A stretch of DNA of 64,000 nucleotides from a virus (IMGVR_UViG_3300030090_007211:87932-151931); one strand, 5' to 3'. Numbered from the stretch's first letter, positions 7,175 through 62,708 are shown. The notes: generated by a model from the sequence alone, not told the origin. Numbers and translations: made by a program.

Positions 7175-7672
7175 CTATTTTTTAGATTTCTTCTTTTTCT
7201 TACTAGTTCGTTTATTTAATTGACAATCAGAAATCGTTTCATAAACACAATTTGTGCTATCATATTTCAAGTTACCACCTTTTTGATCATCATCACATTG
7301 ATGTTTGAATTTACCATTCTTACATTTTTTACAACACATTGGTGATCTTCCTAATTTAGCTTCGTAAGATCCTGGTTTAGGATATCGATTAGGGTCATCA
7401 GGATCATATGGATCATATGGATCAGGGTTATCTTCTTCATATGGATCCGGATAATCATCATCGTCTTGTGATAATACTAACGCTGTTGGTGTAACATATG
7501 CCCCCGCACTGGCAGTGCTAGTTCCCCCTCTTGCGATATTGTTAGATGTGGTAGGATTAGAAGGAGGAGTAGGTGTTTGTTCTTGTAAAGACTCTTTTTT
7601 ACTCTCTTCTTCTATTACTTGTTGTATAATACGATTTAATTGACTTTCAGTTAATTTTATTGTCCTTCCCAT
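7175..7672 (-). CDS. IKLTESQ-leader protein with DPY repeats and a Cys-rich C-terminus
   Basis: MGRTIKLTESQLNRIIQQVIEEE; PDPY/DPY repeats; CCKKC. Confidence 0.65.
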   Translation of the reverse strand: MGRTIKLTESQLNRIIQQVIEEESKKESLQEQTPTPPSNPTTSNNIARGGTSTASAGAYVTPTALVLSQDDDDYPDPYEEDNPDPYDPYDPDDPNRYPKPGSYEAKLGRSPMCCKKCKNGKFKHQCDDDQKGGNLKYDSTNCVYETISDCQLNKRTSKKKKKSKK

Positions 7673-7715
7673 TATATATTATTTAATATATAAATATAGG
7701 AAAAATAATAAAAAA

Positions 7716-7943
7716 TTACTCATTAGTAGTTAAACGGCGTATTATTTCTTCGTAATATTTTTGTTTATCGTCACCAAGTAATATTAAGTCTAATAATTTA
7801 TCTATTTGTTCTTCTAAAGGTAACCAACCACCAATGTAAATTACTAACCCCTCATGTAGATACCTATCATAAGGATCAATCCCAGTTTCTAATATCCAAA
7901 TATCGTAAGCTTTATGATATACTATTTTATAATCTTTTTTCAT
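7716..7943 (-). CDS. hypothetical protein
   Basis: ORF track. Confidence 0.5.
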   Translation of the reverse strand: MKKDYKIVYHKAYDIWILETGIDPYDRYLHEGLVIYIGGWLPLEEQIDKLLDLILLGDDKQKYYEEIIRRLTTNE

Positions 7944-7944
7944 T

Positions 7945-8121
7945 TTAATAATCTAAATCTAAATCAGTGAGTGGAAACTCATCATCGTTATAAGTTTCTA
8001 GTAATTTTTCAATCTCATATTTCCAAGATCGATAAAATTCAATGTCTTCGGCTGAATCCATAACTTCCCCAGCCATCAATCTTAATACAAACATCCTAAT
8101 TTCTAAAAATGTGTCTTCCAT
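7945..8121 (-). CDS. 58-aa protein, paralog of 8186..8359 (not in ORF track)
   Basis: manual translation MEDTFLEIRMFVLRLMAGEVMDSAEDIEFYRSWKYEIEKLLETYNDDEFPLTDLDLDY. Confidence 0.75.
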   Translation of the reverse strand: MEDTFLEIRMFVLRLMAGEVMDSAEDIEFYRSWKYEIEKLLETYNDDEFPLTDLDLDY

Positions 8122-8125
8122 ACTG

Positions 8126-8179
8126 ATAAGTACAGAGGAGAGTAGAGGTAATTAAGTTGATTATGTAAGAGTTTTGTAA
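8126..8179 (-). promoter_or_regulatory. TTACA-N6-TTACA box plus TACTTAT promoter core
   Basis: plus strand ATAAGTA 8126-8132, 31 nt, TGTAA 8164-68, N6, TGTAA 8175-79. Confidence 0.65.
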
Positions 8180-8185
8180 TTAATT

Positions 8186-8359
8186 TTAGTCGTCTTTGGG
8201 AATATCATCAAAAGGGTTTTCCCCTTCATGATAAAGTAAAAGGTATTCTTCTATCGTAGTTCGCCAATTCATATAAAATTGTAAATCTTCAGGAGAATCC
8301 ATTTTATCTCCAGCAATAATACGTAAAACAAACTCCCTTATATTGTTTTCATCACTCAT
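8186..8359 (-). CDS. 57-aa protein, paralog of 7945..8121 (not in ORF track)
   Basis: manual translation MSDENNIREFVLRIIAGDKMDSPEDLQFYMNWRTTIEEYLLLYHEGENPFDDIPKDD. Confidence 0.75.
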   Translation of the reverse strand: MSDENNIREFVLRIIAGDKMDSPEDLQFYMNWRTTIEEYLLLYHEGENPFDDIPKDD

Positions 8360-8364
8360 CTTTA

Positions 8365-8418
8365 ATAAATAAGTGAAACAAGGGGAAATAAGTAATAAGA
8401 AATGTAAAATAAATGTAA
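8365..8418 (-). promoter_or_regulatory. TTACA-N6-TTACA box plus TATTTAT promoter core
   Basis: plus strand ATAAATA 8365-71, 31 nt, TGTAA 8403-07, N6, TGTAA 8414-18. Confidence 0.65.
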
Positions 8419-8419
8419 A

Positions 8420-8860
8420 TTAGTCAGGAGTAACTTCAAAATCCTCACCCAATACTAATTCTCCTGATTGGGCTTCTTTCATAGAAATTTCTTCTCCTTT
8501 AAATCTATCGCCCACATCTTTTATTAAATGCTCTCGGATTGCATTAGATTTAGAAAATTTTTCTTTTTTCATTATCTTATCGTAAATATTCTTTTTATGA
8601 GTATCCTCTAATTTTAAAGGAGATGGTTCTTCTCCTTCACATAAAGAAGAATTAATTTCTTCATACTCCGCACCCTCAAAACTATAGGTAACACTATCGA
8701 TAGGGTCACCTTCTTCTAAACGTGCCTCTAATGAAGCAAAAGTAATTACGTTTACTTTTATTCTATTATTAATTAAATCTACTCTATAGTCACTAATCAT
8801 ACTATATGCTTCACTATGTATAGATTTAAATCTTGTAATAAGGTTTGATATAATTGCCAT
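8420..8860 (-). CDS. hypothetical protein
   Basis: ORF track; TATTTATA upstream. Confidence 0.55.
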   Translation of the reverse strand: MAIISNLITRFKSIHSEAYSMISDYRVDLINNRIKVNVITFASLEARLEEGDPIDSVTYSFEGAEYEEINSSLCEGEEPSPLKLEDTHKKNIYDKIMKKEKFSKSNAIREHLIKDVGDRFKGEEISMKEAQSGELVLGEDFEVTPD

Positions 8861-12477: not shown

Positions 12478-12482
12478 TGAAC

Positions 12483-17147: not shown

Positions 17148-19232
17148 ATGGAAGAGGATAAACAAGAAAAATATCTTAATCGTGTAATTCAAGAGTTGGT
17201 GGATAATACTTATGCAGATGTTAGAGATCAAAAAATATGGCATCCATATGATGAACATTATTCTCGTCATCTAATTGGTGGTGCTCCATTGCAATTTTTT
17301 GATTTTGTTCATGACTCTTATGGTATTTTTCCGGAAGAAGTGGAATCATTATGGTCACAATATAAACATAGGATTAAAAAGGAAAATGGATGGGTACAAA
17401 TTTATCCATTCGATAGTCGTGGTGAAGCAGTTAGATTTGCAATGAATGAAGATTACGATAAGTTTAAAAAAATAGATAATCCTAAACAACATAAATTTTA
17501 TCATAAAATCGCAGATAAAATAGTAGACTTAATTGAGGTGAGAGAAACAAGAGACTATGGGTATGATGAAATGGTAGAAGAAATATTTTTAACGGATTTA
17601 TTAAATCCTAAATTTCCACGTCAAGGAATGAGTTTACCCCCTAATATTAATATTCCAGATTATGATACATTCCACGACAGAATATTACGTAGGGTATCAG
17701 ATTTTTTCCCTATGTTGGAAAACTATTGGTTTATAGATGATATATTTACCCAACTATTTATTCTAACTAAATTTGTATTCCCTAAAATATGGAATAAATT
17801 TTATAAAGGAGAAGATCAACCAGAAGAATCTACAGATTATGGTGAACATGTGTTAGATTATGAAGAAAAGAAGAAAGAAATAAATGAATCTACTTCTTTA
17901 ATAGACGTAGTAGTTAAAGATATGATTAAAAATACTACTACTGAGGTAAGTAAATTTAGTACTCGTACTGTCTATGTCCCTACTAATAATGCAATTTATA
18001 ATTTTGGTTTACTCAATAATTTAGAGCGTTGCCCTAACTATCTTTACAATTACATACAAGATACTTATGGGTTAACTCCCCAAGAAATTGAGGAGGTGTG
18101 GATACATTATAAAGACGCAATTATGAATATGTTAGAGGATACGGATAGTAATAATCCCTTTGCTATTAGAGAAGCAGAAGGAAACATCATTCCTCACTTA
18201 ACTGAAAAAGAGAAGGAAGACCTTTATTCCTTTGCGTGGCATCCCGACCCAAAGAAAGGAAAATTTTACGAAGCTATATTACGGGATGTGATAGGTGCAT
18301 CTGCAATAAGTTGGGATGGAGTAATAACTGTGGGGGATCCTAATCTAGCTCCCGGTAGAGGCTTGGAATTTCATAATATTTCTCTCGCTTATGATGTCAA
18401 TCCCTTCTTCCGCTATTTAAAAGATACTTATGCGTTATTAGATAACGAGATCCACCCTATTTGGTCCCGCTGGGAACATATTATGGAAGAGAAGATAAAG
18501 AAATGGTTAGAGGAGAAAAATATTTCGTGGAATGATGGTCATTATGCTATTGGTGTTGACTATACTGATGACCATATCTGGGATGCTAATAATTTACCCC
18601 CACCTGACCACCCAGACTGGGTGGAGGAATCGACTATTAAAGTAGATGATGAAACGGGAGAGTTTTATGGTTGGAAATCTAACGAACAAATAGATAAAGA
18701 ATATAGTGAAAAATCCAAATTACAAAAAGGTTACTTACAATGGGCAGTAGAAGAAATAAGAGATCAAATAGAAAGTGATCCCATATCCAAAAATCCTTAT
18801 CGATATGGGTCTGCAGATAGTTTACCACCAGCTTGGATACGCATACGTTGGCAAAATTTAGGTTTAGACGCAGATGAGATGGATTGGGCGTGGAGACAAG
18901 TGTTAAACCATTTTAAACCTATCCCTTTAACTGAAAATTTTCCACGTTTAAATAAAAATAAATTTAATTATATATTTAAAGATTTACATAATAAAACAGT
19001 AAAATTACATGGGAGTAATAAACCTCTATGTACAGGAGGTATGTCACCCACATTATCCGATGGTAAAGCAGTACAAATTTATTTCCCCTCTTCCGATTTT
19101 CCTTATTATGTAGAACTAGATGAAAAAGTAAGATCACCTTTTTATCATTATTTAGAAACCACTTACAATCTAAGTGAAGACGAAATAGATGAAGTATGGG
19201 AGAAATATAGACGATATATCTGTCACACATAA
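17148..19232 (+). CDS. 694-aa protein made of about 6 divergent repeats of an uncharacterised helical domain
   Basis: recurrent DSYGIFPEEVESLW / DTYGLTPQEIEEVW / DTYALLDNEIHPIW / TTYNLSEDEIDEVW. Confidence 0.75.
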   Translation: MEEDKQEKYLNRVIQELVDNTYADVRDQKIWHPYDEHYSRHLIGGAPLQFFDFVHDSYGIFPEEVESLWSQYKHRIKKENGWVQIYPFDSRGEAVRFAMNEDYDKFKKIDNPKQHKFYHKIADKIVDLIEVRETRDYGYDEMVEEIFLTDLLNPKFPRQGMSLPPNINIPDYDTFHDRILRRVSDFFPMLENYWFIDDIFTQLFILTKFVFPKIWNKFYKGEDQPEESTDYGEHVLDYEEKKKEINESTSLIDVVVKDMIKNTTTEVSKFSTRTVYVPTNNAIYNFGLLNNLERCPNYLYNYIQDTYGLTPQEIEEVWIHYKDAIMNMLEDTDSNNPFAIREAEGNIIPHLTEKEKEDLYSFAWHPDPKKGKFYEAILRDVIGASAISWDGVITVGDPNLAPGRGLEFHNISLAYDVNPFFRYLKDTYALLDNEIHPIWSRWEHIMEEKIKKWLEEKNISWNDGHYAIGVDYTDDHIWDANNLPPPDHPDWVEESTIKVDDETGEFYGWKSNEQIDKEYSEKSKLQKGYLQWAVEEIRDQIESDPISKNPYRYGSADSLPPAWIRIRWQNLGLDADEMDWAWRQVLNHFKPIPLTENFPRLNKNKFNYIFKDLHNKTVKLHGSNKPLCTGGMSPTLSDGKAVQIYFPSSDFPYYVELDEKVRSPFYHYLETTYNLSEDEIDEVWEKYRRYICHT

Positions 19233-19737: not shown

Positions 19738-20130
19738 ATGAAAACAGAAAATTTTTATACGTATGTGGTCGAATCTTTATTTAACTCCACACATTTAATT
19801 GAAAAAGGAACTCGACCCTCTGAAATTGTTATTGGGGGTAATTTCCACACGTCACCTACCAACTATAATGAAAATTACTCACTATCCTTTGATTTTATTA
19901 ACGGTGAAGTGCCTGATCTTACTTATTCCTTAGCACTATTACAACGATATCATACCTCTAGCATGAGTTTCATATGTTTCCATTCTCAATTTCCTAAGTA
20001 TGTTATGGATAACTTCGGAGTACTAGAAGACGAAGTAGAATTTATATGGGAAAGATTAAGGAAAAGAATAATTGCTACTATTCTCCAAGATCCGGCAAAG
20101 TGCCCAATGCTGGGATCGCTCTCCGCCTAA
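19738..20130 (+). CDS. stand-alone copy of the YGL-E-W repeat domain
   Basis: NFYTYVVESLFNST...YVMDNFGVLEDEVEFIWERL. Confidence 0.65.
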   Translation: MKTENFYTYVVESLFNSTHLIEKGTRPSEIVIGGNFHTSPTNYNENYSLSFDFINGEVPDLTYSLALLQRYHTSSMSFICFHSQFPKYVMDNFGVLEDEVEFIWERLRKRIIATILQDPAKCPMLGSLSA

Positions 20131-20299
20131 CACCACCATATCCACCAGCAGAACCACCTCTTACTACCACATCATAAATACGTGTTAACATTTCTCTATC
20201 TTCTGCAGTAAACGATACAGGTTTATTGTCTATTTCTTCTGCCCAAGATTGTTCGGCAATTACTTCTTTAATTATATTTCTGATTTCTTTTTTTTGCAT
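20078..20299 (-). CDS. small I-x-E-leader protein
   Basis: MQKKEIRNIIKEVIAEQ; TATTTATA upstream. Confidence 0.55.
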   Translation of the reverse strand: MQKKEIRNIIKEVIAEQSWAEEIDNKPVSFTAEDREMLTRIYDVVVRGGSAGGYGGVRRRAIPALGTLPDLGE

Positions 20300-20332
20300 T
20301 AGAATTCTTTTTTATATAAATATATTCTATTA

Positions 20333-23437: not shown

Positions 23438-23890
23438 CTAAAGAGATTTAATATCAATAAGGGTGGTACCTTTTCCTTTATTTTGAAGAGTAATTTCTTG
23501 TTCGTGGGGATAATAAATATTATTATGTAAAGTATTAAAAATATCAATTTGATCCTTATTAACACCCACAGTTATCAACACTACTTTATCTCCCGCATCA
23601 CTATATATTGATCCTTTATTATAGTGATTATATAATAGTTCTTTTTTATTGGGGGAATAATGATCACCTAGGGATTCTGTGTCTATTTCCTCTCCCTCAT
23701 GTAAATATAATAAACGATAGAGGGTAATAGTCTCAGGTAGAGTATTTAACCACTCTAAGAGTCTATTTAAGTCTTCCATACCCCACTCATTATCTAACCC
23801 CATTTCTTCATAGGCATTAGACAATTGAGTTAGTTCGTCACCAGTTAAAGTAACTTCTTCGTTTAATAATTTTATAAATGATATCATCAC
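23438..23890 (-). CDS. putative ADP-ribosyltransferase-fold protein with L-x-E leader
   Basis: ITLYR, HYS, EQEITL in R-S-ExE order. Confidence 0.5.
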   Translation of the reverse strand: MMISFIKLLNEEVTLTGDELTQLSNAYEEMGLDNEWGMEDLNRLLEWLNTLPETITLYRLLYLHEGEEIDTESLGDHYSPNKKELLYNHYNKGSIYSDAGDKVVLITVGVNKDQIDIFNTLHNNIYYPHEQEITLQNKGKGTTLIDIKSL

Positions 23891-24197
23891 TTATAAATAT
23901 ATAAAAAATATGTTTAATCCCAATTAGGTATAGAGTAATACCTTTGTACCATTATTTTTTTTATCTGTGATAAATGTCTTGCATTGTTGAGTTTTAATCC
24001 GTATTCGAAACATATTTGTTTCATGTGTGGTAACAATTCACTAATTGTATGTTCACCTAAAGTTTTAATTGCCATTCTTTTTTCCTTTTTCTATTAATAA
24101 ATGTATTATTTCTTTATAATCCAAATAAATTTGGTAATCGCTGGAGGAATCTAAAGGTTTACCGTCTTGTATACGTTGCACTATCAATTTTATTACT

Positions 24198-39901: not shown

Positions 39902-41155
39902 TTATATCTGGTAAAAATAATATTTTTTATCCTCATATTCCACCTCATCTTCTATACCATTATAAGTGGCAAGAAAATGTGGTACCCCATCATAAGAAAT
40001 TGCATTATCTATCAGGCTACTTACATTTACATCAGCATAACCATACTCTATAGCATCATCTAAATCATATCCCAGATAATCTTCAAGATATAAGAATGGA
40101 TCATCCTCAATATCAGTCAGCCATATTTCTTTTCTTAATTCCCAATATTGGGTTTGTAGTTCATCTCCCTCATAGGATTTCTTTTGTATTTTATACTCTT
40201 TCAGTTCGTCAGATAATTTATTTTTTTCTTTATACGTCATTTCAATCATAGTTTGGATTTCCATAAAAAATCTTTCCGCTTCATTCAATTTAATTTCTAA
40301 TCTTTCAACCTCCTCCCCAAATTCTTCATACCCATAAGCTTCATCTTCATACTCAATATGACCACTTAATTTTTCAATTTCTTTCTCTAAAATTATTTTT
40401 TCTTTTTCTATGTTATCTCGTTGAAACTCTAATTCTTGTATTTCTCTTAATGTTACAACTATTTCCTTTTTAAGGAATTCCATTTCCTCTTCTATATCTT
40501 CGTAGTCTTCTTGTAAACCTAACTGATCACGCATAGTAAAAGGGCTCATTCTCCCCATGTCGTCATCCGCTCGATATTCTGCCTGTTCTTCAATCCACCA
40601 ATACAACCAATTAACCTCATCTACAACCCAACTGCTATTAAAAGCATTTAACCCCTCATTATTATAATCATCTTCAATTATAGTGGAGGCTGCATCATAG
40701 GATTGTTGTTCGCTATTACTCACCAAATATTCTTGAGTGTGTGATGTATGAAATTGCGATGGATTATCATCTATTATAAAAGCTTCGTATTGGGGTAAAT
40801 AAACTCCTGTGGGATCTCCCGCATCTATTTCCTCAATAAAAAAAGGGTCAATATCTAAGAACTTACTTAATGCTTCTATGTTTTTATTTTTTGGGGACTT
40901 TTTATCTAAAATGGCACTTTCCATTTCACTAAATTTTTGATCACCCTTATCTTTATTGTTAATATATAATTTTATTAATTGGGTGAGCATATATGGATTA
41001 GTAATAGATAACACCTTAACTAAAAAGTGTAATACATCCTTCATTGAGGTTTCTACCCCTTTCTTCTCCATAATAGATAACATTTTTTTCTCTATTGGAG
41101 TTAATTTAACTTTTTTTTCTTCGCCTTCTACTAATATGTTAGAAAATTTCATCAT
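39902..41155 (-). CDS. acidic coiled-coil paralog-family protein with L-x-E leader
   Basis: MMKFSNILVE, KLTPIEKKML; similar to 53338..54483. Confidence 0.7.
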   Translation of the reverse strand: MMKFSNILVEGEEKKVKLTPIEKKMLSIMEKKGVETSMKDVLHFLVKVLSITNPYMLTQLIKLYINNKDKGDQKFSEMESAILDKKSPKNKNIEALSKFLDIDPFFIEEIDAGDPTGVYLPQYEAFIIDDNPSQFHTSHTQEYLVSNSEQQSYDAASTIIEDDYNNEGLNAFNSSWVVDEVNWLYWWIEEQAEYRADDDMGRMSPFTMRDQLGLQEDYEDIEEEMEFLKKEIVVTLREIQELEFQRDNIEKEKIILEKEIEKLSGHIEYEDEAYGYEEFGEEVERLEIKLNEAERFFMEIQTMIEMTYKEKNKLSDELKEYKIQKKSYEGDELQTQYWELRKEIWLTDIEDDPFLYLEDYLGYDLDDAIEYGYADVNVSSLIDNAISYDGVPHFLATYNGIEDEVEYEDKKYYFYQI

Positions 41156-42024
41156 GCAATATTATTTCTACTAAACTTTTTTAAATCTTCTAGATTATCT
41201 ATTTTATATTGAATGGCGTAATCCACTTCTCCTCTCTCGTCTTCTAACTGGGTTTGTTGACCTGGCTCATCAATTTCTACTACTTCCTTATCATGAGTAA
41301 CATTATAAATAATATCGAATCTATATTTATTTTCCTCCACCCATAATAAAAATTCACTCCCATCTTTGGGTAATTCTATTTTTTCATCACTTACTACTAT
41401 AACCTCTCTTCTCCATAAAGTTGCAGTATCAAACTCTCTCCAATGTCTGGTTTCTCCCCCACATTCCCGACAATCATACGATATCTCTCCCACCCCTTCA
41501 CAATCAGAACAATCTTCCGGACCTTCTTCTTCATCATATATTACACTTCCATCTCCATCACAATAATTACATTCTTCATACTCCCAACCAGAACCCTCAC
41601 AATTCTCACAATCCCACGATTCTTCATCATATCCTTCCACTATCTCATCTTCATAATAATAAACTTTAGTTACCCAAAATGGGTCATCTAATCTTAAAGG
41701 GTCTTTCTTAAAATCTTTAACATCTATGTTTCTATATAAAAGATATAAAATAGATGCAATATCACTTTCAGTCAAATCACTAAAAATATTCTGTAACCAC
41801 GTACGTAATGGTACTAACTGATCATATTCTTTTCTCTTCAGTGGCCACATATTTCTAAATAAATCACTCAAATCCTGAGTTATTGCCTTATTAGGGTCTT
41901 TTATCTGTTGGGAGATACGATTTAAATCAAAAGTCTTAGATATCATATCTAATGCCCTCCTATAGAATTTATTATCTAAAGGGGTTTCTCTTCGTTGTTC
42001 ATTTAATATATCTAAAAATTTCAT
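41152..42024 (-). CDS. acidic protein with four CxxCxGxG-type zinc-finger repeats
   Basis: CENCEGSG, CNYCDGDG, CSDCEGVG, CRECGGE; MKFLDILNE leader. Confidence 0.75.
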   Translation of the reverse strand: MKFLDILNEQRRETPLDNKFYRRALDMISKTFDLNRISQQIKDPNKAITQDLSDLFRNMWPLKRKEYDQLVPLRTWLQNIFSDLTESDIASILYLLYRNIDVKDFKKDPLRLDDPFWVTKVYYYEDEIVEGYDEESWDCENCEGSGWEYEECNYCDGDGSVIYDEEEGPEDCSDCEGVGEISYDCRECGGETRHWREFDTATLWRREVIVVSDEKIELPKDGSEFLLWVEENKYRFDIIYNVTHDKEVVEIDEPGQQTQLEDERGEVDYAIQYKIDNLEDLKKFSRNNIA

Positions 42025-42026: not shown

Positions 42027-42992
42027 CTAATAATGTAAATAATCGTTTAATATTTGACCAATGTAGGTAAATGTTTCATCCGTATCCCCATCAGTCTCAA
42101 AATGAATCTCCGGATGTTCGTCAACATATTTTTTAATATCTAACCCAATTTCTTCATTAACGTCTAACTCTTCGTCATCATACTGCCAACTAGGTTGAGA
42201 TCTTATATAATCTATTACTTTTTTAGCATCCACATCAGTAAAGTACTGATTTAATTGATCTATTGCCATCTCCATTTCCACTCTATCAATAAATAATAAC
42301 ACATCTTCCTCATTGTCCGCATCATACATCAACGGCTCATCTGCATGACTTGTCTCTAAATAAGAACTAGTAACATAAATTTTATCCCCCATCCCATGAG
42401 TATTAAATGTTTTCCAAAAATTTCGTTGTCCAAATTCAGGATTATATGGTTTCCAATTAGGATTAGTGTAACCCATAAAATCACCGCTACTAATAGGTAT
42501 TAAACTTTTACCACCAAAATTTCTTTCTCTTCTAAAAGATTCTGGATCATAAACTTCTTTTTTCCATCTTTCCCATAATTCTATCATTATACCTGGAGGT
42601 ACGGAATAGATTTCCATAAAATTTCCTTCACTACTAGAACCAGAACCAAACAAGTTTTTTAAATGTGCCACTAAACGTAAATTATCATTAATTAACGATT
42701 CCTTTTCAATCAATTTTGACCTTAAGGATAAAATGTCATCTATCTCCATATCTAATACATTTTTATGTGTATCCAATAATTCTTTTAGATTTTGGATTTG
42801 TATATTCGCATTCATTGCTGCGGCCCTATACTCATATGCTTCATTATTACTATACATAGTATTATATGCAGCATTAAACCAATCGGTATCCACATAAAGG
42901 TTCTCATACCATTGAGTAAGTTTAGGTATTAATGCATTGATAAATCTTTCATTACCTTTAGTATTTTCATATAGTATCTCAATTATTTTCAT
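42027..42992 (-). CDS. acidic L-x-E-leader protein
   Basis: MKIIEILYE. Confidence 0.6.
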   Translation of the reverse strand: MKIIEILYENTKGNERFINALIPKLTQWYENLYVDTDWFNAAYNTMYSNNEAYEYRAAAMNANIQIQNLKELLDTHKNVLDMEIDDILSLRSKLIEKESLINDNLRLVAHLKNLFGSGSSSEGNFMEIYSVPPGIMIELWERWKKEVYDPESFRRERNFGGKSLIPISSGDFMGYTNPNWKPYNPEFGQRNFWKTFNTHGMGDKIYVTSSYLETSHADEPLMYDADNEEDVLLFIDRVEMEMAIDQLNQYFTDVDAKKVIDYIRSQPSWQYDDEELDVNEEIGLDIKKYVDEHPEIHFETDGDTDETFTYIGQILNDYLHY

Positions 42993-43894
42993 TATACTTT
43001 TCCTAATATATCAATTATTATCATATCCATTACTCCTGGTTCACTTACTTTTTTCTTTTGAAATTCTTCTATTTTATTGGCGTCATCTTCTACATATGAT
43101 ACATATTCTTCTGTCACATCATCCATAAAAATCTCATCTAATATTATAACATCATCACTATATTTATCCATAAAATCATTATAATTTACCGGTGGAACCA
43201 TAATATGTGTAGAACCGTCGTCAAACTTCGCTTTACGAGTAGGTGAAATAATAGTAGATGGTGTAGGAATATCTTCTAAACTTAACATAATCCACTCATA
43301 TAGATTAATAGTATATTCCTCATAATCTTCGGGCACTTCGCCGCCTCCACCACACTCTTCACAATCATTGGTTACTTCTCCGCTTCCCTCACAGGAATCA
43401 CAAGATATCATGATAGGGTTACCCTCATCGTCCGTATCTGTTTCTTCTTCCCCACTTCCATCACACATTTGACACTCTTCGTCATTACTACCATAACCAT
43501 CACATTCATAACATTCCTCATAACGAGTATCCCATTCTTCTTGAATATCCCCATACGCACTTATATGATATAAATAACCATCCCAGTTGGTGGTTATATC
43601 ATCAACTAAATAATTTTTTTTCCCATTTAATAAAAGTATCCATATTAATTGCCCTATTCTTGTGGGTTCACTTATATAAAGAACATCTCTTATGAATTTT
43701 TGTATGGGTAAAATATAACTTTTAATAAAAGTCTTATAACGTGAGTTCCCATTAAAAGCATCGTACGCTATCTCAATTTTCTTAGGTAGTTGTTTAGAAA
43801 TAATACTTAACAACCTTCTATTAACCTTACTATCTAAGTCAGAAAGAGGAGATTGTGGAGATTTTTCTTCTAATATCTGTGTGAACTTTATCAT
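42992..43894 (-). CDS. acidic protein with four CxxCxGxG zinc-finger repeats, paralog of 41152..42024
   Basis: CYECDGYG, CQMCDGSG, CDSCEGSG, CEECGGGG; MIKFTQILEE leader. Confidence 0.75.
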   Translation of the reverse strand: MIKFTQILEEKSPQSPLSDLDSKVNRRLLSIISKQLPKKIEIAYDAFNGNSRYKTFIKSYILPIQKFIRDVLYISEPTRIGQLIWILLLNGKKNYLVDDITTNWDGYLYHISAYGDIQEEWDTRYEECYECDGYGSNDEECQMCDGSGEEETDTDDEGNPIMISCDSCEGSGEVTNDCEECGGGGEVPEDYEEYTINLYEWIMLSLEDIPTPSTIISPTRKAKFDDGSTHIMVPPVNYNDFMDKYSDDVIILDEIFMDDVTEEYVSYVEDDANKIEEFQKKKVSEPGVMDMIIIDILGKV

Positions 43895-43920
43895 ATACTA
43901 TAAATATATGGGAAATAGTA

Positions 43921-44376
43921 TTAAGATGTTATTTCACTAACCTTCCCTTTTAAAATTATGTCTTCGTCTATTGGTCTCCAATCTGTGATGTAATTAGAGT
44001 TAACTGGTTTTCCATCAGGAGGTATTGCAATAGTAATATGAGGGATATCTTTAGTAGTGGGATAACCTTCTACTTCTACGGCAATTGCATCTTCTGATAC
44101 CCCCACTTTTTTTACTAATAAAGATACTCTTTTATCTAAATCATCTTTTAATTCAGGTGGTAAAGATTCTTTAAACACTATAGTCATATGTTCCCCCATT
44201 TTATTCCAATGCAAAGGAATATCTACATAATTTTTGACTAACATAAGAAGATGGTCACGAGCGTCATCATCTAAAACTACGGCAGAATATAAAACCTTAT
44301 TTTTACCTTCTTTAATGAATTTAGATTTTTTCTTTATTAATCTTACACCTGCTTCTATAATATGTTTCTTTTTCAT
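43921..44376 (-). CDS. 2H phosphoesterase (tRNA-ligase cyclic-phosphodiesterase-like)
   Basis: two HxT motifs HMTI and HITI, YSAVVLD, PVNSN. Confidence 0.8.
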   Translation of the reverse strand: MKKKHIIEAGVRLIKKKSKFIKEGKNKVLYSAVVLDDDARDHLLMLVKNYVDIPLHWNKMGEHMTIVFKESLPPELKDDLDKRVSLLVKKVGVSEDAIAVEVEGYPTTKDIPHITIAIPPDGKPVNSNYITDWRPIDEDIILKGKVSEITS

Positions 44377-44397
44377 ATATAAATAAATAGTCTATAA

Positions 44398-53337: not shown

Positions 53338-54483
53338 TTATAATTCAAATGTGAAGTATGTCTCGTTTCCTATATCGTGTTCATTATAGTCTCCTGTACC
53401 AGTACTAAGAACTTCGCCCCAATCTGCTTCACCAGCAAAATCTGATATTGCACTTTCGGCATCAAAATCAAAATAATACTGAATGGCATCCTCTCTGTCC
53501 ATACCATAGTTATCAGTAAAAAATGATAAACCTTCTGTTTCAATATCACTTATCATATCTTCCATATATTTCTCTTTTAATTCTTCTGTGGCAGTTTCTT
53601 CTAAACCATATAGTTTATCTCTAAGGTCTTGAGCTTCTTCCTCCCATCCAGTCATAGCACTTTCTTTGTCGTCTCTCTCGTATTCTTTATCACTTATCTC
53701 TTCTTCTAATTCTTGGTATTCATCGGAAATGAATGCTTCTTCGTCTTCTTCTTCCATTTCTTCTAATAGTTCTCGTAACTCTTCTATTTCACTTTCTAAC
53801 TCCTCAATTTCCTCTTCCAACTCCTCTTTCTTACCTTCATACTCCTCAATGGTATTTTCCATATCCTCCGCATCATAACCCGCCTCCTCAATAATTTCAG
53901 ACTCATCCATGTCCCTTAATCTATTCTCTACATAATCTTCCACAAACTCTTCTATAGCATAGTCATCGGGGGATAGGTATTGTTCTAACCACCATTCTTC
54001 AAAATTATCCAGATATTCCATTTCATCTCTAGCATAAGTTTCTAACGCATCATCTACCTCTATATCTGTACCTATAGCCCATTCGTTATTCTCTAATAGG
54101 TCTCTATAAACCGGTAATTCATAATGTCTATAATCTGCCCTTTCAAACATAAATGGAGGGGTACCTGTTTCTATAGATAATGCCCTTATCTCATCATCAT
54201 AATCTTCAAGCTTAGTAAAATTACTTAAATCAATACTAACTAAATCGTTAAAAGTTTCATCTTCATCATCGGGGTCTCTCCAATGTTGGGTGAAAATATA
54301 AATTAATCTTAATGCTAATTCTTCATCTCCAATATATAAGGGTTCACCTACTAACGCACCCCATACCTCTCCTGGATCTAAAGGGTCAACACCCAATTTA
54401 TTAAGTAAATTAAGCATCTTCCTTTCTTTAGGAGTTATCTTATGCATCTCTGCCTCTTCTTTTATTAATTTAAATAATTTCAT
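53338..54483 (-). CDS. very acidic coiled-coil paralog-family protein with I-x-E leader
   Basis: MKLFKLIKE, KITPKERKML; Glu-rich heptads. Confidence 0.7.
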   Translation of the reverse strand: MKLFKLIKEEAEMHKITPKERKMLNLLNKLGVDPLDPGEVWGALVGEPLYIGDEELALRLIYIFTQHWRDPDDEDETFNDLVSIDLSNFTKLEDYDDEIRALSIETGTPPFMFERADYRHYELPVYRDLLENNEWAIGTDIEVDDALETYARDEMEYLDNFEEWWLEQYLSPDDYAIEEFVEDYVENRLRDMDESEIIEEAGYDAEDMENTIEEYEGKKEELEEEIEELESEIEELRELLEEMEEEDEEAFISDEYQELEEEISDKEYERDDKESAMTGWEEEAQDLRDKLYGLEETATEELKEKYMEDMISDIETEGLSFFTDNYGMDREDAIQYYFDFDAESAISDFAGEADWGEVLSTGTGDYNEHDIGNETYFTFEL

Positions 54484-55641
54484 TTAATAATCTGTTTCAT
54501 ATACATAATAAATATCTCCTTCTTTATCTTTATGCGTTTCCATATATCTAACATCACTTAAAATTTCAAAATCTTTATATTTTACTTCCTGGTCAATTAT
54601 CTTATCTACATCAATATGTAACCATCCTGGTAATAAATCAGGGTCAAACGTACTGCTCGTAGTTCCATATGATGATGAAGATACCCTCAGAGTTCCACCA
54701 AATTGTAAATCCCCTCTACTAGTTTTATCAATATATCCCAACTCCCATAAATAATCGATCAAATTATTTTCTAATCTATCATATATGTCTTCATAAATTC
54801 TTTCTCTTACACTTTCTCGACCTTTTTGTAATATTTTATCTAATTTATTTTCTAAAATAGTAGTATCTTTATCTTCTTCTTCATATTCTTCTATTTTCTC
54901 CTTAGTCTCCATATATTCCTCCCATATTACATCTTCATCATCTAATTCATTAATGATATCTTCATCACTCATTTCAGATTCTAAATGATCTGATTCGTCA
55001 ATCGCAATTAATCTCTTATCAGTATCAGTTACTTCTAACCTATGGATTAATTCTTCTTCACCAATATACTCTACTAACATTCTATCATCAATATATAATC
55101 CTTCAAAATAATCCCTTAATGCATCTTCCGATTCATCTTCATCTCCTATAAAATAATGTGCTTGTCTTACCATATCATAAATTATGGGCATACCATACGT
55201 AGTCTCCTCAGTAGGTATTACCCATAAAGGAGAAACACCCACTAATTCCGAATAAAGTTTAGATTCAGGTGAAATAACTAAATCTCTTTCTTGTTTATAT
55301 AATTGATTTTTATAATTTCCTTCTACATTAAAATTGTTGAAGAATAAATCTCCATAATAATCAACGTCTTTAGGTGATAAATGTAAGGTATCTTTTAAAA
55401 ATTTTACAACTGCCCTAACAATATCTTCATCCACATTAATCATTGCGTCTTCAATATATTTTTTATCTTCATCGTCCCATGTATCGCTAGAGGTTTTTTG
55501 ATTATTAATACCATGACGTACTTGAAGTATTAATGAATATACTTTGGGTAGTGCTTTAGTGTGTAAAAGATTTAGTATTTTTTTATCACTATTACTTAAT
55601 TCTGGATCATTAATATCAGATTCATGAAGAAGTATACGCAT
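54484..55641 (-). CDS. acidic paralog-family protein with L-x-E leader
   Basis: MRILLHE, ELSNSDKKIL, VVKFLKDTL. Confidence 0.7.
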   Translation of the reverse strand: MRILLHESDINDPELSNSDKKILNLLHTKALPKVYSLILQVRHGINNQKTSSDTWDDEDKKYIEDAMINVDEDIVRAVVKFLKDTLHLSPKDVDYYGDLFFNNFNVEGNYKNQLYKQERDLVISPESKLYSELVGVSPLWVIPTEETTYGMPIIYDMVRQAHYFIGDEDESEDALRDYFEGLYIDDRMLVEYIGEEELIHRLEVTDTDKRLIAIDESDHLESEMSDEDIINELDDEDVIWEEYMETKEKIEEYEEEDKDTTILENKLDKILQKGRESVRERIYEDIYDRLENNLIDYLWELGYIDKTSRGDLQFGGTLRVSSSSYGTTSSTFDPDLLPGWLHIDVDKIIDQEVKYKDFEILSDVRYMETHKDKEGDIYYVYETDY

Positions 55642-55721
55642 AAGTTATTTTAATAATAAATATTGATATTTATTTAAATATACTTTATTATTACAATAAT
55701 AATCCATAAAATTATATCACT

Positions 55722-57206: not shown

Positions 57207-59381
57207 TCAATCACCAAATCTGTCAGGATCCATTGGATCTAACTCGTCTTCTATTTCTAAATTTTCTGTATCTTCATTAGTGAGATAATGTCCCAGAGGT
57301 CTAGGTGGTTCTAACTCATTGAATCGTGTTGCCAGTTCCCTTAATGCGATTAAATCCCCAATAGTTTCTGGGCGCTCTGTCACTAATTCTTCACCAATTA
57401 TATTTCCTTGACGACCATAAATATTTCTTAATCTTGTTTCCTCTATTTCAGGTGGAACTTCAGTTATCTCATCATCAATAACGTGCTCGATAAAATCGTT
57501 TCCTATATCCATTCCTTCCCTATCAAAGATATAACCAAATTCATTATCAACAGGAACTGCTTCCAACCCGTAAGTTATTTCATTATTTTTAGTAGATAAA
57601 TCTTGAGTAGTTGCTAATAAGGCATTATTTAAAACCATCATATCTTCATAATTTTTTAGTCTAGATTGGTACACCATTTTCAATAAGTTAGTATTGAGAT
57701 GGGTTATTAAGAGTTGGGAAATAACCGTATGATACAAACTAGGTTTTTTATTACACGTAGATAATAATTGTTGTATCCCATAACTTAAACCATTTTTTTC
57801 TACAAAAATTTCAAATGCAGAAGTGCTGTTAATAGTTTTAATAATAAAAACTTTTACCTTACCTTCTTTAATTTTATCTGCATAACCTTGACCTTCATTA
57901 TTTAAACAATTTTTTAATTTTTGTCCTGACCATTGTAACTGACACTCACTGATTATTTCCTTTATTTCTACATTGTCAGGTAACTCTAATCCACTTATAT
58001 CTTGAGGTTGGATTAAAGGTTTATCCATTTCTTTCTTTTTAGCTTCTACCCATTTCATCATATTCTTATGGGTAGGTAAAATAGAAGAATTAGACTCCTC
58101 TAGTGCCTGTGTTAAAATATTTAAAATAAAAAACCCTTCCTTCTTAATTATTCTCTCAATATCATTAACAAAGGTAAGGGTTTGTTGTAGATTCATTTCA
58201 TACTTACCAATAAATCTAGTTATAATAGGATTTTTCCTTATAACCTCATCAATATTATTAACATGTTCTAGAGTAAAATCACAATTATAGAAATTGGGGT
58301 TTACTAATGCCAATAATTTGGTATATGAACCATTTTCTATAATTAATTTCGCCTTATTTATTTGAGTCTTTTTCATTTTCCCCCTAATTAAATTATATGC
58401 ACTCATAAATGTGAGGGGATTAGGTACAGTACCTTTTAATATATCACTCATGGATAAATTTCTCTCACTATATTTGGTAGGAGTTAATGTCCATAATCTA
58501 TCATTTAGATTCGCCCATCTTTCTAATACACCTTGTGGGGGTGTACGATGAGGATCTAACCAATTAACTGCATGATCTTTATCTAATTTTTTATTATGCT
58601 GTTTTGTTCTATATTGATACCTTGCATCCCATACCCTTCTTTTATGGTCAAAAAATTTAATCATTCGGAAATAATGTTTTAGTTCACCATAATACCGAAT
58701 ATACATATCTTTATACTTATCCGTAAAATAAAATCCGAATTGAGACCTATCTAAATGTATAATATTATCACTCAATAATGGTTGTGATAATAATTCCATA
58801 CATGCTTCTACATTACAATAACAATTAAGTTCCTTTTTCTTTTTAAATAATCGTATGGCGGTATGGGCAGGAGTATAAACTGAAGTAACATCCAACTGTT
58901 TAGTTTCCAAAAATTCTTCAAACTCTGTAGTATAATAAAGTGTATTAGTTGATAGGTCGATTCCCACCTGACAACAATTAAGGTCAAACCCTTTTAAAAT
59001 ATAAGTAGGGTTAGATGCTCTATTTCTATTATCTATGGCAGAAATATCAATAATATTATAAAACCCCTCATATCTTACACCAGTAATTCTATAGGTAGTA
59101 TCTCGTTGGTAACCTATTGTACCCCCATAATAACCATCTTCTACAATTAGACTGTCTGAACGTAAAGGTGCACTACTGGATCGTGTCGGACCATCTGGGT
59201 CTTCCTCGATGTAAATATCTAAATCATTAATGGGATACTCTATGTCCCCATATTTCATCCCTAATAAAGTATTAGCAACTGCCCCACCTGCCAAAAACCC
59301 TTCTTTTGGAATGGGGGCAATCTCATTTAATCTACGTAAAATTTGTTCAACAATATTAGACTCTTTTAAAATATTTTCCAT
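57207..59381 (-). CDS. nucleotidyltransferase-like (CCA/poly(A) polymerase head) protein with possible PcfJ-like domain
   Basis: FLAGGAV, NDLDIY, FDLNCCQ; later SGQKLKNCL. Confidence 0.6.
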   Translation of the reverse strand: MENILKESNIVEQILRRLNEIAPIPKEGFLAGGAVANTLLGMKYGDIEYPINDLDIYIEEDPDGPTRSSSAPLRSDSLIVEDGYYGGTIGYQRDTTYRITGVRYEGFYNIIDISAIDNRNRASNPTYILKGFDLNCCQVGIDLSTNTLYYTTEFEEFLETKQLDVTSVYTPAHTAIRLFKKKKELNCYCNVEACMELLSQPLLSDNIIHLDRSQFGFYFTDKYKDMYIRYYGELKHYFRMIKFFDHKRRVWDARYQYRTKQHNKKLDKDHAVNWLDPHRTPPQGVLERWANLNDRLWTLTPTKYSERNLSMSDILKGTVPNPLTFMSAYNLIRGKMKKTQINKAKLIIENGSYTKLLALVNPNFYNCDFTLEHVNNIDEVIRKNPIITRFIGKYEMNLQQTLTFVNDIERIIKKEGFFILNILTQALEESNSSILPTHKNMMKWVEAKKKEMDKPLIQPQDISGLELPDNVEIKEIISECQLQWSGQKLKNCLNNEGQGYADKIKEGKVKVFIIKTINSTSAFEIFVEKNGLSYGIQQLLSTCNKKPSLYHTVISQLLITHLNTNLLKMVYQSRLKNYEDMMVLNNALLATTQDLSTKNNEITYGLEAVPVDNEFGYIFDREGMDIGNDFIEHVIDDEITEVPPEIEETRLRNIYGRQGNIIGEELVTERPETIGDLIALRELATRFNELEPPRPLGHYLTNEDTENLEIEDELDPMDPDRFGD

Positions 59382-60722: not shown

Positions 60723-60740
60723 TTTATTAAATATTATAAA

Positions 60741-60772
60741 CAAATATACAAAAAAATATTTTAATATCCAAA
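60741..60772 (-). promoter_or_regulatory. Bacteroidota primary-sigma promoter
   Basis: TTTG-N20-TATATTTG. Confidence 0.85.
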
Positions 60773-60868
60773 CAATATTATTACTTTTTTATTACTATTA
60801 TTCTTTACAAAAAGGGTTTGAATAAGTATTTATTAACAAAGATAACAAATAAATAAAGATATTATATT

Positions 60869-60973
60869 ATGGGATGTGGATGTAAAAAGAAAAAAGCTGC
60901 GAAACCAAAAACTACTACAACTACTAAAAGTACACCAACTAAACCAGTAACACCAAAACCTAAATCTAAGTAA
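60869..60973 (+). CDS. 34-aa basic MGCGC peptide (not in ORF track)
   Basis: manual translation MGCGCKKKKAAKPKTTTTTKSTPTKPVTPKPKSK; TATTTAT at 60827-33. Confidence 0.65.
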   Translation: MGCGCKKKKAAKPKTTTTTKSTPTKPVTPKPKSK

Positions 60974-60974
60974 A

Positions 60975-61442
60975 TTAGGTTAACTGATTGGCGGGTCCTC
61001 GTGCAGGACTTACTGACCATGGAGAATTATCTAAAGTATTATCCGGACCTCTTTGAGGGCTTACTGACCATGGGGAATTATCTAAAGTATTCGCCGGTCC
61101 CCTAGTGGGTGAAACTAAATCATCCCATTTGGTGTAACTACCTGTGGAGGCGCTTTCTCCACCACCTTCTTCTTGTTCCTCAATAGGTTCTTCTTCTTCT
61201 AAACCAATACCATATTCATTTACTACAAACCCCGAGTCTTGCTCTTTATCATAATAACCTAAATAAACCCCATAATGATCATATACTATTACTTCATATT
61301 CATTACTACTAAAATTTAAATCATTAGGTGAGTCTACCCAACTTAGAATATGAGTATACCATTCTTTAGGGTCATTAATTATTTCCCCGAACTCTCTCAG
61401 TAACACTTTTTTGTATTGGGACTCTGTAAGTTTAATTTTCAT
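60975..61442 (-). CDS. IKLTESQY-leader protein with C-terminal 17-aa tandem repeats
   Basis: MKIKLTESQYKKVLLRE; three units of W..VSP.RGP.N.L. Confidence 0.7.
   Translation of the reverse strand: MKIKLTESQYKKVLLREFGEIINDPKEWYTHILSWVDSPNDLNFSSNEYEVIVYDHYGVYLGYYDKEQDSGFVVNEYGIGLEEEEPIEEQEEGGGESASTGSYTKWDDLVSPTRGPANTLDNSPWSVSPQRGPDNTLDNSPWSVSPARGPANQLT
60978..61127. repeat. about 3 x 51-bp coding tandem repeat
   Basis: cttactgaccatgg(a/g)gaattatctaaagtatt recurs at 51-nt spacing. Confidence 0.8.
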
Positions 61443-61444
61443 TT

Positions 61445-62098
61445 CTATCCTATATTACTTAATAACTTCTGAAAATTATACCTTGATAAATCAAAGTCAT
61501 TATCCTCATCATTTTTATATGGTAGAACCTCATACTGATTGTCTTCATCATAAAAATCATCTTTAACCATTTCTTTTTGGGGATTGATTTCCTCTATGTC
61601 ATCCAAATCAAATACATTTTCTATAGTTTTAAAGTTTAAATCCATTTCTCCTACTACAAAATCTTCTACATCACCAATTCTAATATTCTTTAATGCTTCT
61701 TGTGGGGTTTTCCCCATTACGTATATATTGGCATCAGGATATCCTCTACCAACTATTTCAATAGTTGTAGGTACAGAGGTAGGTATTTTCCATACCCCCA
61801 TATACTCTAAAGGTTTACCTATTAACTCCTTCAAATCATGTTGTGAGTGGAAATCTACCATTATTTTAAAATTATGTGCCAAAATGATTGCCTCCTCTTG
61901 GGTTAACACTAAATCCTCCATTATATAGTCAACAATGTTATAATTCATTTTTAACTCTCCGTTTTGTATTTTATCTCTAATTTTTTCAAATACCTTTACC
62001 ATGAACGGATTTACTGTCTTACTCACTCTTCCCCAGTTCTCACCAGTGTCCTCAGTTAATAATCTATTATATTGGCTTTCTGTTAATTTAATTTTCAT
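61445..62098 (-). CDS. IKLTESQY-leader acidic protein
   Basis: MKIKLTESQYNRLLTE. Confidence 0.7.
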   Translation of the reverse strand: MKIKLTESQYNRLLTEDTGENWGRVSKTVNPFMVKVFEKIRDKIQNGELKMNYNIVDYIMEDLVLTQEEAIILAHNFKIMVDFHSQHDLKELIGKPLEYMGVWKIPTSVPTTIEIVGRGYPDANIYVMGKTPQEALKNIRIGDVEDFVVGEMDLNFKTIENVFDLDDIEEINPQKEMVKDDFYDEDNQYEVLPYKNDEDNDFDLSRYNFQKLLSNIG

Positions 62099-62099
62099 T

Positions 62100-62708
62100 T
62101 TAATTATTTACTAAATTTACATCATGAACAATATCCTCCCAATCCTGATCATAGATTCTATCAGAAATGTAATCATCTATATAACCTTCATCTATCTCCC
62201 ATTGAATATCCATCACCTCATACTCTACATATTGTCTATCGTCTACATCATAATCATAATAATCACCATTTTCTAATTGAGTTAAAAACTCTTCTTGATC
62301 AGTAGCATATCCCGTATACGTACCCATTTGGTATCCACTTAAAAACCCCCTCAGCGGAATATCTTGATTAAATTCAAACTCCCCATAAAACTCTAATGGC
62401 TCACCTAAAAATTCACTAAAGTCTCCTTCATAATTTTCAGGATTTATTTTTAAAAAATAGTTATAACAGATAACTAAAGATACTGCGTTTGGTATTGCTA
62501 AATCTTGTGCTACCTTTTTTGATATCATAGGTATATCCCTTAATTCTTTAAAATTAGGATATCGTTTTCTTATAAAATTAAAACATTTTATAATAAACTT
62601 ATCAACCTTATTACCTATCTCTTTAAAGTTAACAGTACCATCAAGAAAATCTTTATCATTTTCTTTTAATAATCTATTATATTGGCTCTCCAGTAATTTG
62701 ATCCTCAT
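62100..62708 (-). CDS. IKLLESQY-leader acidic protein, paralog of 61445..62098
   Basis: likely start MRIKLLESQYNRLLKE; shared G.PLE(Y/F).G. Confidence 0.7.
   Translation of the reverse strand: MRIKLLESQYNRLLKENDKDFLDGTVNFKEIGNKVDKFIIKCFNFIRKRYPNFKELRDIPMISKKVAQDLAIPNAVSLVICYNYFLKINPENYEGDFSEFLGEPLEFYGEFEFNQDIPLRGFLSGYQMGTYTGYATDQEEFLTQLENGDYYDYDVDDRQYVEYEVMDIQWEIDEGYIDDYISDRIYDQDWEDIVHDVNLVNN

Follow-up and report, generated by a model that had tools for sequence, protein, structure and literature searches.

Recurrent N-terminal leaders ending in (I/L)-x-E in an uncultured jumbo T4-type phage: candidate capsid-targeting propeptides on many unrelated proteins

In bacteriophage T4, the prohead protease gp21 cleaves after the glutamate of L/I-x-E sequences, and IPI, IPII and IPIII, which are internal proteins, as well as Alt carry a capsid-targeting sequence (CTS), MKTYQEFIAE, which is removed by gp21; residues 4 and 7 of the CTS are involved in targeting and residues 8 and 10 in processing (PMC9026906, PMC8442874). 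The T-even phages contain polymorphic internal-protein loci, in which variable open reading frames (ORFs) share a CTS-like leader (PMC9026906, section 3.1). For the head and ejection proteins of phiKZ, 201phi2-1 and SPN3US, the prohead protease cuts at S/A/G-x-E (PMC9026906, PMC5694885, PMC7411985). This paper will focus on a 64,000-nucleotide stretch of viral DNA (IMGVR_UViG_3300030090_007211:87932-151931, here called the window), for which an initial annotation, made from the sequence, had described a set of proteins beginning with a short leader that ends in (I/L)-x-E. Coordinates refer to the window unless they are given as genome coordinates, which refer to the whole contig.

The window is the terminal 64 kb of one contig of 151,931 bp with a GC content of 29.9%, for which CheckV gave a completeness of 46%. 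Two complete genomes with the same class A leader (described below) have sizes of 322 kb and 353 kb, and a contig of 297 kb also encodes one of the window proteins; the source is therefore an uncultured marine jumbo T4-type phage of roughly 300-350 kb. A codon-usage model with a minimum length of 40 amino acids called 216 genes on the contig. Large terminases with identities of 76-98% were identified in 310 IMG/VR stretches, while the best matches among cultured phages are Flavobacterium phage vB_FspM_immuto, with 41% identity for the capsid protein and 28% for the terminase, and Rhodothermus phage RM378. A megablast search with 16 kb of the contig against the phage collection gave zero matches.

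With moderate confidence, the leaders are considered to be capsid-targeting propeptides of the T4 kind, cut by a head protease and used on a far larger scale. Like T4, the phage combines an S77 protease, a head of the gp23, gp20 and scaffold type, a short tag ending in (I/L)-x-E and late genes, the latter here predicted from a promoter motif. A group of decapeptide leaders has an aromatic or hydrophobic residue at position 4, hydrophobic residues at positions 7 and 8 and E10, as in the CTS, and in both systems unrelated cargo proteins share a tag. Unlike T4, with about four tagged genes, about 41 are present here on half a genome, in at least five leader families identified by sequence. The class A leader differs from the CTS by its length of 16-17 residues, by two candidate sites and by extra invariant residues, and whereas the T4 cargo is small and basic, much of the cargo here is strongly acidic or directed at peptidoglycan.

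The likeness to the T-even loci lies in one leader heading fast-changing, unrelated cargo, with a cargo set that is nearly all different between related phages; however, the tagged genes here are spread across the whole late region and fall into several leader families, in place of a single small locus. With the phiKZ group the phage shares the jumbo genome, dozens of (here candidate) head-internal proteins and a (here predicted) cleavage after glutamate. It differs from this group in that P3 is I or L, as in T4, and in the recurrence of short tags, since no common targeting peptide has been defined there. A propeptide of the phiKZ type, S/A/G-x-E, fails as a description, because every conserved leader has I or L at P3. 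A more distant parallel is offered by the encapsulins, whose cargo-loading peptides are mostly located at the C-terminus and stay on the protein, with neither protease nor scaffold taking part. The short flexible terminal peptide, the diverse cargo and the HK97-fold shell are alike, and the parallel would hold by analogy only.

Leader families and their conservation

All 13 N-termini listed in the initial annotation were found on the minus strand where it had placed them. For the one listed at 23890, the leader was present and its start was refined: a GTG at 23890 is followed by an ATG at 23887, from which the exact 10-mer MISFIKLLNE is obtained. The bare (I/L)-x-E rule is weak, being matched by 14.8% of internal 13-residue windows. 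N-termini matching the rule belong to 66 of the 216 genes (30.6%, binomial p=3e-9), and 2000 shuffles of the first 30 residues gave 34.4 +/- 5.0 with a maximum of 53, so that the enrichment over shuffled N-termini was borne out. The CTS-shaped pattern Φ-x-x-Φ-[ILVM]-x-E, which was defined after the data had been seen, is present within the first 17 residues of 32 of the 216 genes, compared to 5.6 expected (p=3e-15). In ungapped comparisons of the first 24 residues, with internal segments as control, 59 N-terminal pairs scored 40 or more where about zero were expected.

Single-linkage clustering of the N-termini at a score of 30 was too loose and gave one cluster of 75, and scores of 36-40 were used instead. 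By clustering and hidden Markov models (HMMs), at least five leader families were defined on the contig. The recurrence of the leaders thus stands, while the single shared motif gave way to several longer families. On the whole contig 41 leader genes were identified, which together encode 10,802 residues (24% of the coding total) and which all share the strand of the head genes (p=7e-6). This confirmed that the observation is real and larger than first stated.

Class A, M-K-I-K-L-T-E-S-Q-[YFL]-x-[KR]-Φ-Φ-x-E, has its motif at residues 3-17 and is found on about 17 proteins of the contig, four of them in the window (starts at 7672, 61442, 62098 and 62708). It can be read as a strand, KIKLT, leading into a capped amphipathic helix, and the spacing before E16 equals that of the T4-like decapeptide. 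Class B, MKxIIxKILKEE, comprises four or five proteins, with the protein starting at 20299 as the only class B-like member in the window; class C, M[GS]RLGKLKRQLIEEANKRLLGE, comprises five, and class D, MKxxxTLxEExxRMxGLM, four. The T4-like decapeptide class, M-x-K-F-x-x-I-L-x-E, is represented by six of the 13 listed proteins (23887, 41155, 42024, 42992, 43894 and 54483), and by six to eight genes of the window in total. Three of these decapeptides, MIKFTQILEE, MMKFSNILVE and MISFIKLLNE, carry F4, I/L7, L8 and E10, and in the corresponding proteins 43894, 41155 and 23887 both spacing and residue classes match CTS positions 4, 7, 8 and 10, in a comparison of only 10 residues. The leader at 55641, MRILLHE, is a degenerate class A leader. 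The one at 44376, MKKKHIIE, satisfies the loose rule only, fits no leader class and is the weakest of the 13. Of the 13 window proteins, 12 have an N-terminus that ends in (L/I)-x-E in a conserved context, as in a propeptide of about 10-19 residues.

Two further sequences were noticed beside these families. An additional coding match to K-L-T-E-E-Q is located between two called genes at genome 35226-35243 (minus strand), outside the window, and probably marks a small leader ORF below the 40-amino-acid calling limit. A 724-aa protein (window 57207-59381, minus strand) and a 176-aa protein (genome 79688-80218, minus strand) have the N-terminal motif ENIL...VE.xLRRLNE in common, which may represent a sixth leader family. 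A full-text literature search with the leader strings gave no paper.

The conservation of the leaders was followed in homologous proteins. For the protein at 42992-43894, 15 homologs with identities of 26-94% have M1, K3, L8 and E10 invariant and T5 and I7 nearly so; the zinc-ribbon cysteines and glycines and a few scattered positions are also invariant, and residues 11-20 vary. In eight homologs of 53338-54483 with identities of 27-94%, M1 and E9 never vary and each P3 residue is either I or L. The family of the protein starting at 62098, with an overall identity of 25-36%, retains M1, I3, K4, L5, E7, Q9, Y10, L13 and E16 as invariant residues. A syntenic ortholog of 54484-55641 (24% identical, E=2e-17) begins with MKFSEILSE in place of the MRILLHE found here, which suggests that the site was retained despite an altered leader sequence.

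Within class A, identical residues agree in their codon in only 62% of cases, AGT, AGC, TCA and TCC all occur for the conserved serine, and conservation is 0.72 at codon position 2 compared to 0.52 at position 3. Because the serine codon families vary and position 2 is more conserved than position 3, it is the leader peptide on which, as judged from the codons, selection acts. The DNA upstream of the leader genes is not conserved except for a promoter-like motif; together with the synonymous and serine-family codon changes, this excluded a DNA repeat or cassette. For the protein at 42992-43894, an AlphaFold2 (AF2) model with a predicted local distance difference test score (pLDDT) of 75.6 has residues 1-13 unstructured, with pLDDT below 50, and a fold beginning near residue 22. 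The model suggests that the leader of this protein is a free tail, as expected for a linear motif which is read by another protein.

The leaders were also compared to signal peptides. They are charged and amphipathic, as in KIKLTESQYKRLLKE, and do not contain the h-region of Sec, lipoprotein or T9SS signal peptides; true signal peptides of the same genome, such as MKKLITLLLVLVTLNGYSQ, differ from them. In a signal peptide of any of these types, a basic n-region has to be followed by about 10-15 residues of hydrophobic h-region, and the leaders fail in this respect.

Head genes, promoter motifs and related phages

The initial annotation had proposed to look for a gp21-type prohead protease, and one was identified at genome 26496-27188, where a Peptidase_S77 domain (PF03420) is matched with an E-value of 1.3e-24 and 87.3 bits against a cut-off of 27. 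The protein aligns to T4 gp21 (PDB 5JBL, 1.3e-19), and at two positions with A in the crystallised chain it has H and S. The H and S at these positions are presumably the catalytic residues. The protease gene is part of a head module which is located outside the window on the minus strand in T4 gene order: large terminase, Portal_T4, two small proteins, Peptidase_S77, a 541-aa acidic protein and a Gp23-type capsid protein. The portal matches PF07230 (gp20) with 9e-80 and the capsid protein PF07068 (Gp23) with 3.6e-73. The 541-aa acidic protein has a C-terminus homologous to that of an immuto protein at the equivalent position and is termed the putative scaffold; it contains 3.3 [IL]xE per 100 aa, compared to 1.6 genome-wide. 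In the capsid protein, the sequence ALLNE|ATD lies 11 residues before the segment which aligns with residues 28-62 of mature gp23*, and would thus be a T4-like maturation site at which cleavage is predicted. N-terminal [IL]xE sequences are also present in the small head-module proteins and in the S77 protease, and several leader genes flank head genes.

According to the initial annotation, the leader genes or their operons are located behind the motif TATTTAT and never behind a host-type promoter. The latter was confirmed for the window, as TAnnTTTG is directly upstream of none of the 13 genes. The former holds in part: TATTTAT is present 12-31 nt upstream of seven of the 13, while the other six are operon-internal or have none within 70 nt. 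On the contig, the motif is found at this distance for 22 of 41 leader genes compared to 46 of 175 others (p=0.001), and at the level of operons for 32 of 41 compared to 80 of 175 (p=2e-4). The comparison of the two motifs that had been suggested also gave a difference, with leaders in 21 of 57 genes which have the late motif only and in one of 21 which have the host motif only (p=0.004). TATTTAT also precedes the protease, portal and terminase genes, and it is common in this AT-rich DNA. Judged by this motif, the leader genes are predicted to be late genes which are co-regulated with the head genes.

TATTTAT also precedes a gene outside the window, at genome 45570-48035 (plus strand), which codes for an 821-aa Hsp100 ATPase of the ClpB/ClpC type. 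The domains of this protein are Clp_N, two AAA rings, a UVR motif and ClpB_D2-small.

The class A leader is widespread among related phages. In the loci of 80 relatives, the class A HMM matched 67 ORFs in 45, all on the terminase strand, and 57 of 68 matches start at residue 3. Used as a degenerate DNA pattern, MKIKLTExQ was found in more than 117 IMG/VR stretches. From the matches listed, 96 distinct class A proteins were picked on residues 1-9 only. Positions which had played no part in this selection are kept in these proteins, with Y/L/I/F at 10, K/R at 12, I/V/L at 13-14 and E at 16, and ΦΦxE occurs within residues 10-20 of 65 of the 96, compared to one of 91 at a control position. Among the matches listed, the 96 proteins represent at least 32 cargo clusters headed by class A. 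The S77 protease is present in four of five large leader-bearing contigs, both complete genomes included. The same enrichment recurs in the complete 322-kb relative, with 83 of 325 genes compared to 38 expected, and this phage has its own variant, MK[FY][LI]ITE[SE]x. The class A DNA pattern was not found in Flavobacterium phage immuto, which has recurrent leaders of its own: MENFDLKKFLVENKLT, MKKQILSEQFKRMQxLAGIITES and MKKSQLRxIIKE. Protein starts of the leader type in immuto read MENFDLKKFLVE-, MKKQILSE-... and MKKSQLRxIIKE-.

In 596 Gb of prokaryote genomes, the same DNA pattern gave 37 stretches, which is the chance level, and six of these contain the extended leader; a Prochlorococcus single-cell genome accounts for five, spread over three of its contigs, and a Gillisia contig from a metagenome-assembled genome for the sixth. 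The class A leader is thus absent from cellular genomes except for phage contigs, to which five of the six extended matches belong. The Prochlorococcus assembly with class A leader genes on three contigs is that of Prochlorococcus sp. AG-409-L21. Contrary to this assembly, the phage signal peptides, which end in ...SQ or ...AQ, and the TAnnTTTG motifs would point to a host from the Bacteroidota. IMG/VR labels the contig as a 'provirus', which probably stems from sugar-metabolism genes at genome 1-12 kb. Since the lytic phage immuto has a protein with 78.5% identity to one of the encoded proteins, these genes are likely to be phage-borne.

The proteins behind the leaders

The description of the proteins as otherwise different was supported by BLASTP and phmmer, except for the paralog pairs 42024/43894 and 62098/62708. 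When the first 28 residues of the 41 proteins were removed, BLASTP found no kinship beyond a shared PG_binding_1 domain and two paralog pairs; PG_binding_1 occurs behind class A as well as class C leaders. A distant paralogy of 53338-54483 and 54484-55641 was detected via a relative, and one of 39902-41155 and 53338-54483, apparent by eye, was not supported by phmmer. These comparisons suggest that the leader is a portable tag on unrelated cargo.

Most of the cargo proteins are ORFans. On the contig, the recognisable ones comprise a SleB-type cell-wall hydrolase, a protein with NlpC/P60 and PG_binding_1 domains and two further PG_binding_1 proteins, as well as a nucleotidyltransferase-like protein, DUF5824 and DUF4314 proteins and a weak zincin match. 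In addition, four CxxC are present in each of two acidic proteins, and there are several coiled-coil proteins of extreme acidity and a 2H-phosphoesterase-like protein. Among the cargo types named in the initial annotation, the zinc-finger proteins (four CxxC, with a PF00684 match below the cut-off) and the strongly acidic proteins, the latter by composition, could be verified. For an ART-like enzyme, searches of Pfam, PHROGs and the Atlas with the window leader proteins gave no support for an ADP-ribosyltransferase. The proposed 2H phosphodiesterase is a lead only: the 151-aa protein at 43921-44376 (minus strand, leader MKKKHIIE, TATTTAT at 44383-44389) has the two HxT motifs H63-M-T and H113-I-T, and its nearest Atlas clusters have PF08302 in 22-39% of their members.

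This gene is the first of an operon running from 44376 to 39902. It is followed on the minus strand by the gene for a 300-aa acidic Zn-ribbon protein at 42992-43894 (leader MIKFTQILEE, TATTTAT at 43900-43906), for the model of which Foldseek found nothing in the PDB at E<=0.001, and by that for a 321-aa acidic protein at 42027-42992 (leader MKIIEILYE). The paralog of the Zn-ribbon protein is encoded at 41152-42024 (minus strand), an acidic protein of 290 aa with four CxxC as in a DnaJ-type Zn ribbon and the leader MKFLDILNE. The operon is closed at 39902-41155 (minus strand) by the gene for a 417-aa very acidic coiled-coil protein (D+E 98, K+R 44) with the leader MMKFSNILVE. A gene pair running from 55641 to 53338 on the minus strand is headed by the gene for a 385-aa acidic protein at 54484-55641 (leader MRILLHE, TATTTAT at 55656-55662), for which an Atlas search gave no usable match. 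The second gene, at 53338-54483, codes for a 381-aa extremely acidic coiled-coil protein (D+E 126, K+R 29) with the leader MKLFKLIKE. A search for related loci with this protein gave none, and one with a 1046-aa protein gave one non-syntenic locus. A further acidic protein, of 149 aa, is encoded at 23438-23887 (minus strand); it bears the decapeptide MISFIKLLNE, and TATTTAT is located at 23893-23899.

The class A proteins of the window are also encoded on the minus strand. The 165-aa protein at 7175-7672 has the leader MGRTIKLTESQLNRII..., matched by the HMM with 25.3 bits at residues 5-19, and a TATTTAT late-type promoter motif at 7690-7696 on the same strand, 24 nt upstream of the ATG at 7672. 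The leader is followed by a linker rich in Pro and Thr, an acidic stretch and a tail rich in Cys and Lys; the protein belongs to neither a Pfam nor a PHROG family. A run of D-P-Y repeats was noticed after the Pro/Thr linker, then a Cys-rich segment and a poly-Lys tail, KKKKKSKK, which is reminiscent of T4 internal proteins that are small, basic and DNA-associated. The 155-aa protein at 60975-61442 has the leader MKIKLTESQYKKVLLRE (HMM 25.4 bits), which is retained in its IMG/VR orthologs, and at its C-terminus a unit of about 20 residues, SP.RGP.NTLDNSPWSV, is repeated in tandem almost perfectly, as two copies and a partial third one. The 217-aa protein at 61445-62098 has the leader MKIKLTESQYNRLLTE (HMM 26.0 bits), and its AF2 model was too poor for use (pLDDT 46.7). 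For its 202-aa paralog at 62100-62708, with the leader MRIKLLESQYNRLLKE, the start at 62708 was preferred over an ATG at 62735 or a TTG at 62777. The class B-like protein, of 73 aa, is encoded at 20078-20299 (minus strand), with TATTTAT at 20316-20322; its leader is MQKKEIRNIIKE, and the core of this leader, I-R-N-I-I-K-E, agrees with the one shared by four class B proteins outside the window, I-[KRQ]-[KN]-I-L-K-E.

Two long proteins contain repeated [IL]xE sites. A 464-aa protein encoded outside the window (genome 68359-69753, minus strand) has the junctions ILSE|S, LDE|S, NLNE|S and YLNE|S every ~113 residues, and a 694-aa protein of the window (17148-19232, plus strand) has [IL]xE at residues 16, 130, 247, 353, 456 and 596. 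Both are candidate polyproteins, and the spacing would be compatible with their division by the head protease into ~110-aa units.

Competing explanations and significance

The following course of events is proposed. Late in infection, the short flexible N-terminal tag would bind each protein to the assembling scaffold core of the prohead. The gp21-type S77 protease would then cut after the glutamate of the (I/L)-x-E of the tag, which would be E9 or E10 in the decapeptides and E7, E16 or both in class A. The cut would release the cargo within the head, and ejection along with the DNA would follow. The propeptide reading is preferred because of the protease and the T4-like head module, the site in the capsid protein, the conserved leader families with their invariance at P3 and P1, the free tail, the shared promoter motif and the restriction to phages.

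Several points weigh against this reading. The background of [IL]xE is high in an AT-rich proteome, with ThyA and an IscA-like protein as false positives that fit the pattern, and the CTS-shaped pattern was formulated post hoc. The identity of the large terminase to that of the nearest cultured phage is just 28%, and head cargo taking up a quarter of the coding capacity would be unprecedented in T4. Several of the cargo proteins are peptidoglycan hydrolases or binders, which fit the tail or the periplasm at least equally well. Class A keeps K4, T6 and Q9, beyond the needs of a cleavage site; one ortholog (MKIKLNVSQYKRLLE) does not have the first L-T-E; and the second site is present in just 68% of the class A proteins. 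The position of the cut in class A is uncertain for these last three reasons.

Some of the same observations would be expected if the leaders were docking tags for another site of the virion, such as tail, baseplate, neck or capsid surface, or scaffold-binding tags which are not cleaved. A short strand and an amphipathic helix would then plug varied modules into one hub, with (I/L)-x-E being incidental. The strand KIKLT with its capped helix, the additional conserved residues of class A, the ortholog with the lost L-T-E and the four cargo proteins which hydrolyse or bind peptidoglycan, as virion-associated lysins typically do, all speak for docking. However, P3 and P1 are the very residues that are invariant in the decapeptide families, the second ΦΦxE is 65-fold enriched over the control position, none of the tagged proteins has a match among known tail or baseplate families, and several tagged genes flank head genes, so that docking is held to be unlikely. 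The tandem paralogs 42024/43894, 62098/62708 and 53338-55641, and internal copies of the class A motif in a few proteins, would fit leaders that are retained N-terminal modules of expanded families, for example an oligomerisation or nucleic-acid-binding helix with no role in sorting or processing. Yet most cargo parts have no detectable homology and one leader heads at least 32 unrelated clusters; moreover, conservation is much stronger in the leader than in the cargo, variable linkers separate the two, and the leader was modelled as a free tail outside the fold. Retained modules are therefore judged to be quite improbable.

The leaders could also be recognition tags for another phage enzyme, either the Hsp100 unfoldase (genome 45570-48035) or a modifying enzyme. 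This two-ring ATPase with Clp_N is encoded among leader genes behind TATTTAT, and in three relatives, both complete genomes included, the Hsp100 gene is located 13-19 kb from the protease gene. But immuto has recurrent N-terminal leaders and no Clp ATPase, sorting by the T4 CTS needs no such enzyme, and there is no evident reason for unfolding or degrading about 40 late proteins, which leaves this explanation little chance. A tag linked to a Radical-SAM/SPASM enzyme, as proposed for RB43-type phages, was rejected, as PF04055 was unmatched in the contig and in five relatives (two of them 100% complete), while positive controls were recovered in 14 of 14 cases. The smallest probability is given to chance combined with composition and a bias at translation starts, by which an AT-rich, Lys/Ile/Leu/Glu-rich proteome with favoured MK-rich starts would produce such leaders by itself. 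Indeed, 15% of random 13-residue windows contain [IL]xE, and K, I and L are overrepresented at N-termini; chance is the best account of MKKKHIIE and of some pattern matches in housekeeping enzymes. It does not produce the 59 high-scoring pairs, the counts never reached by shuffling, the conservation at unselected positions or the invariant residues in divergent families. For classes A to D and the decapeptide families chance was thus refuted, and it stands only for single weak members.

The propeptide reading can be extended to a more speculative proposal, which we consider rather doubtful. A widespread marine clade of jumbo T4-like phages would use at least five interchangeable leader families as an address code, by which a ready-made proteome, representing as much as a quarter of the coding capacity, would be loaded into the capsid. 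This proteome would include peptidoglycan hydrolases, nucleotide-modifying enzymes, acidic proteins resembling DNA mimics and polyproteins with protease-cut joints, and the leader classes would set location, copy number or order of ejection.

The concept of capsid targeting is already present in the T4 literature, and the gain therefore lies in the scale, the leader families and the kinds of cargo, not in the principle. If the propeptide reading is correct, the protease and the leader peptides would form a defined pair that is testable in vitro although the phage is uncultured, and the leaders would provide new short tags for the loading of foreign proteins into T4-type capsids. ORFans that are injected as host-takeover or anti-defence proteins could then be predicted from their sequence. 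The T4 CTS would be a general plug-in system, which in some environmental jumbo phages has been expanded to dozens of cargo proteins.

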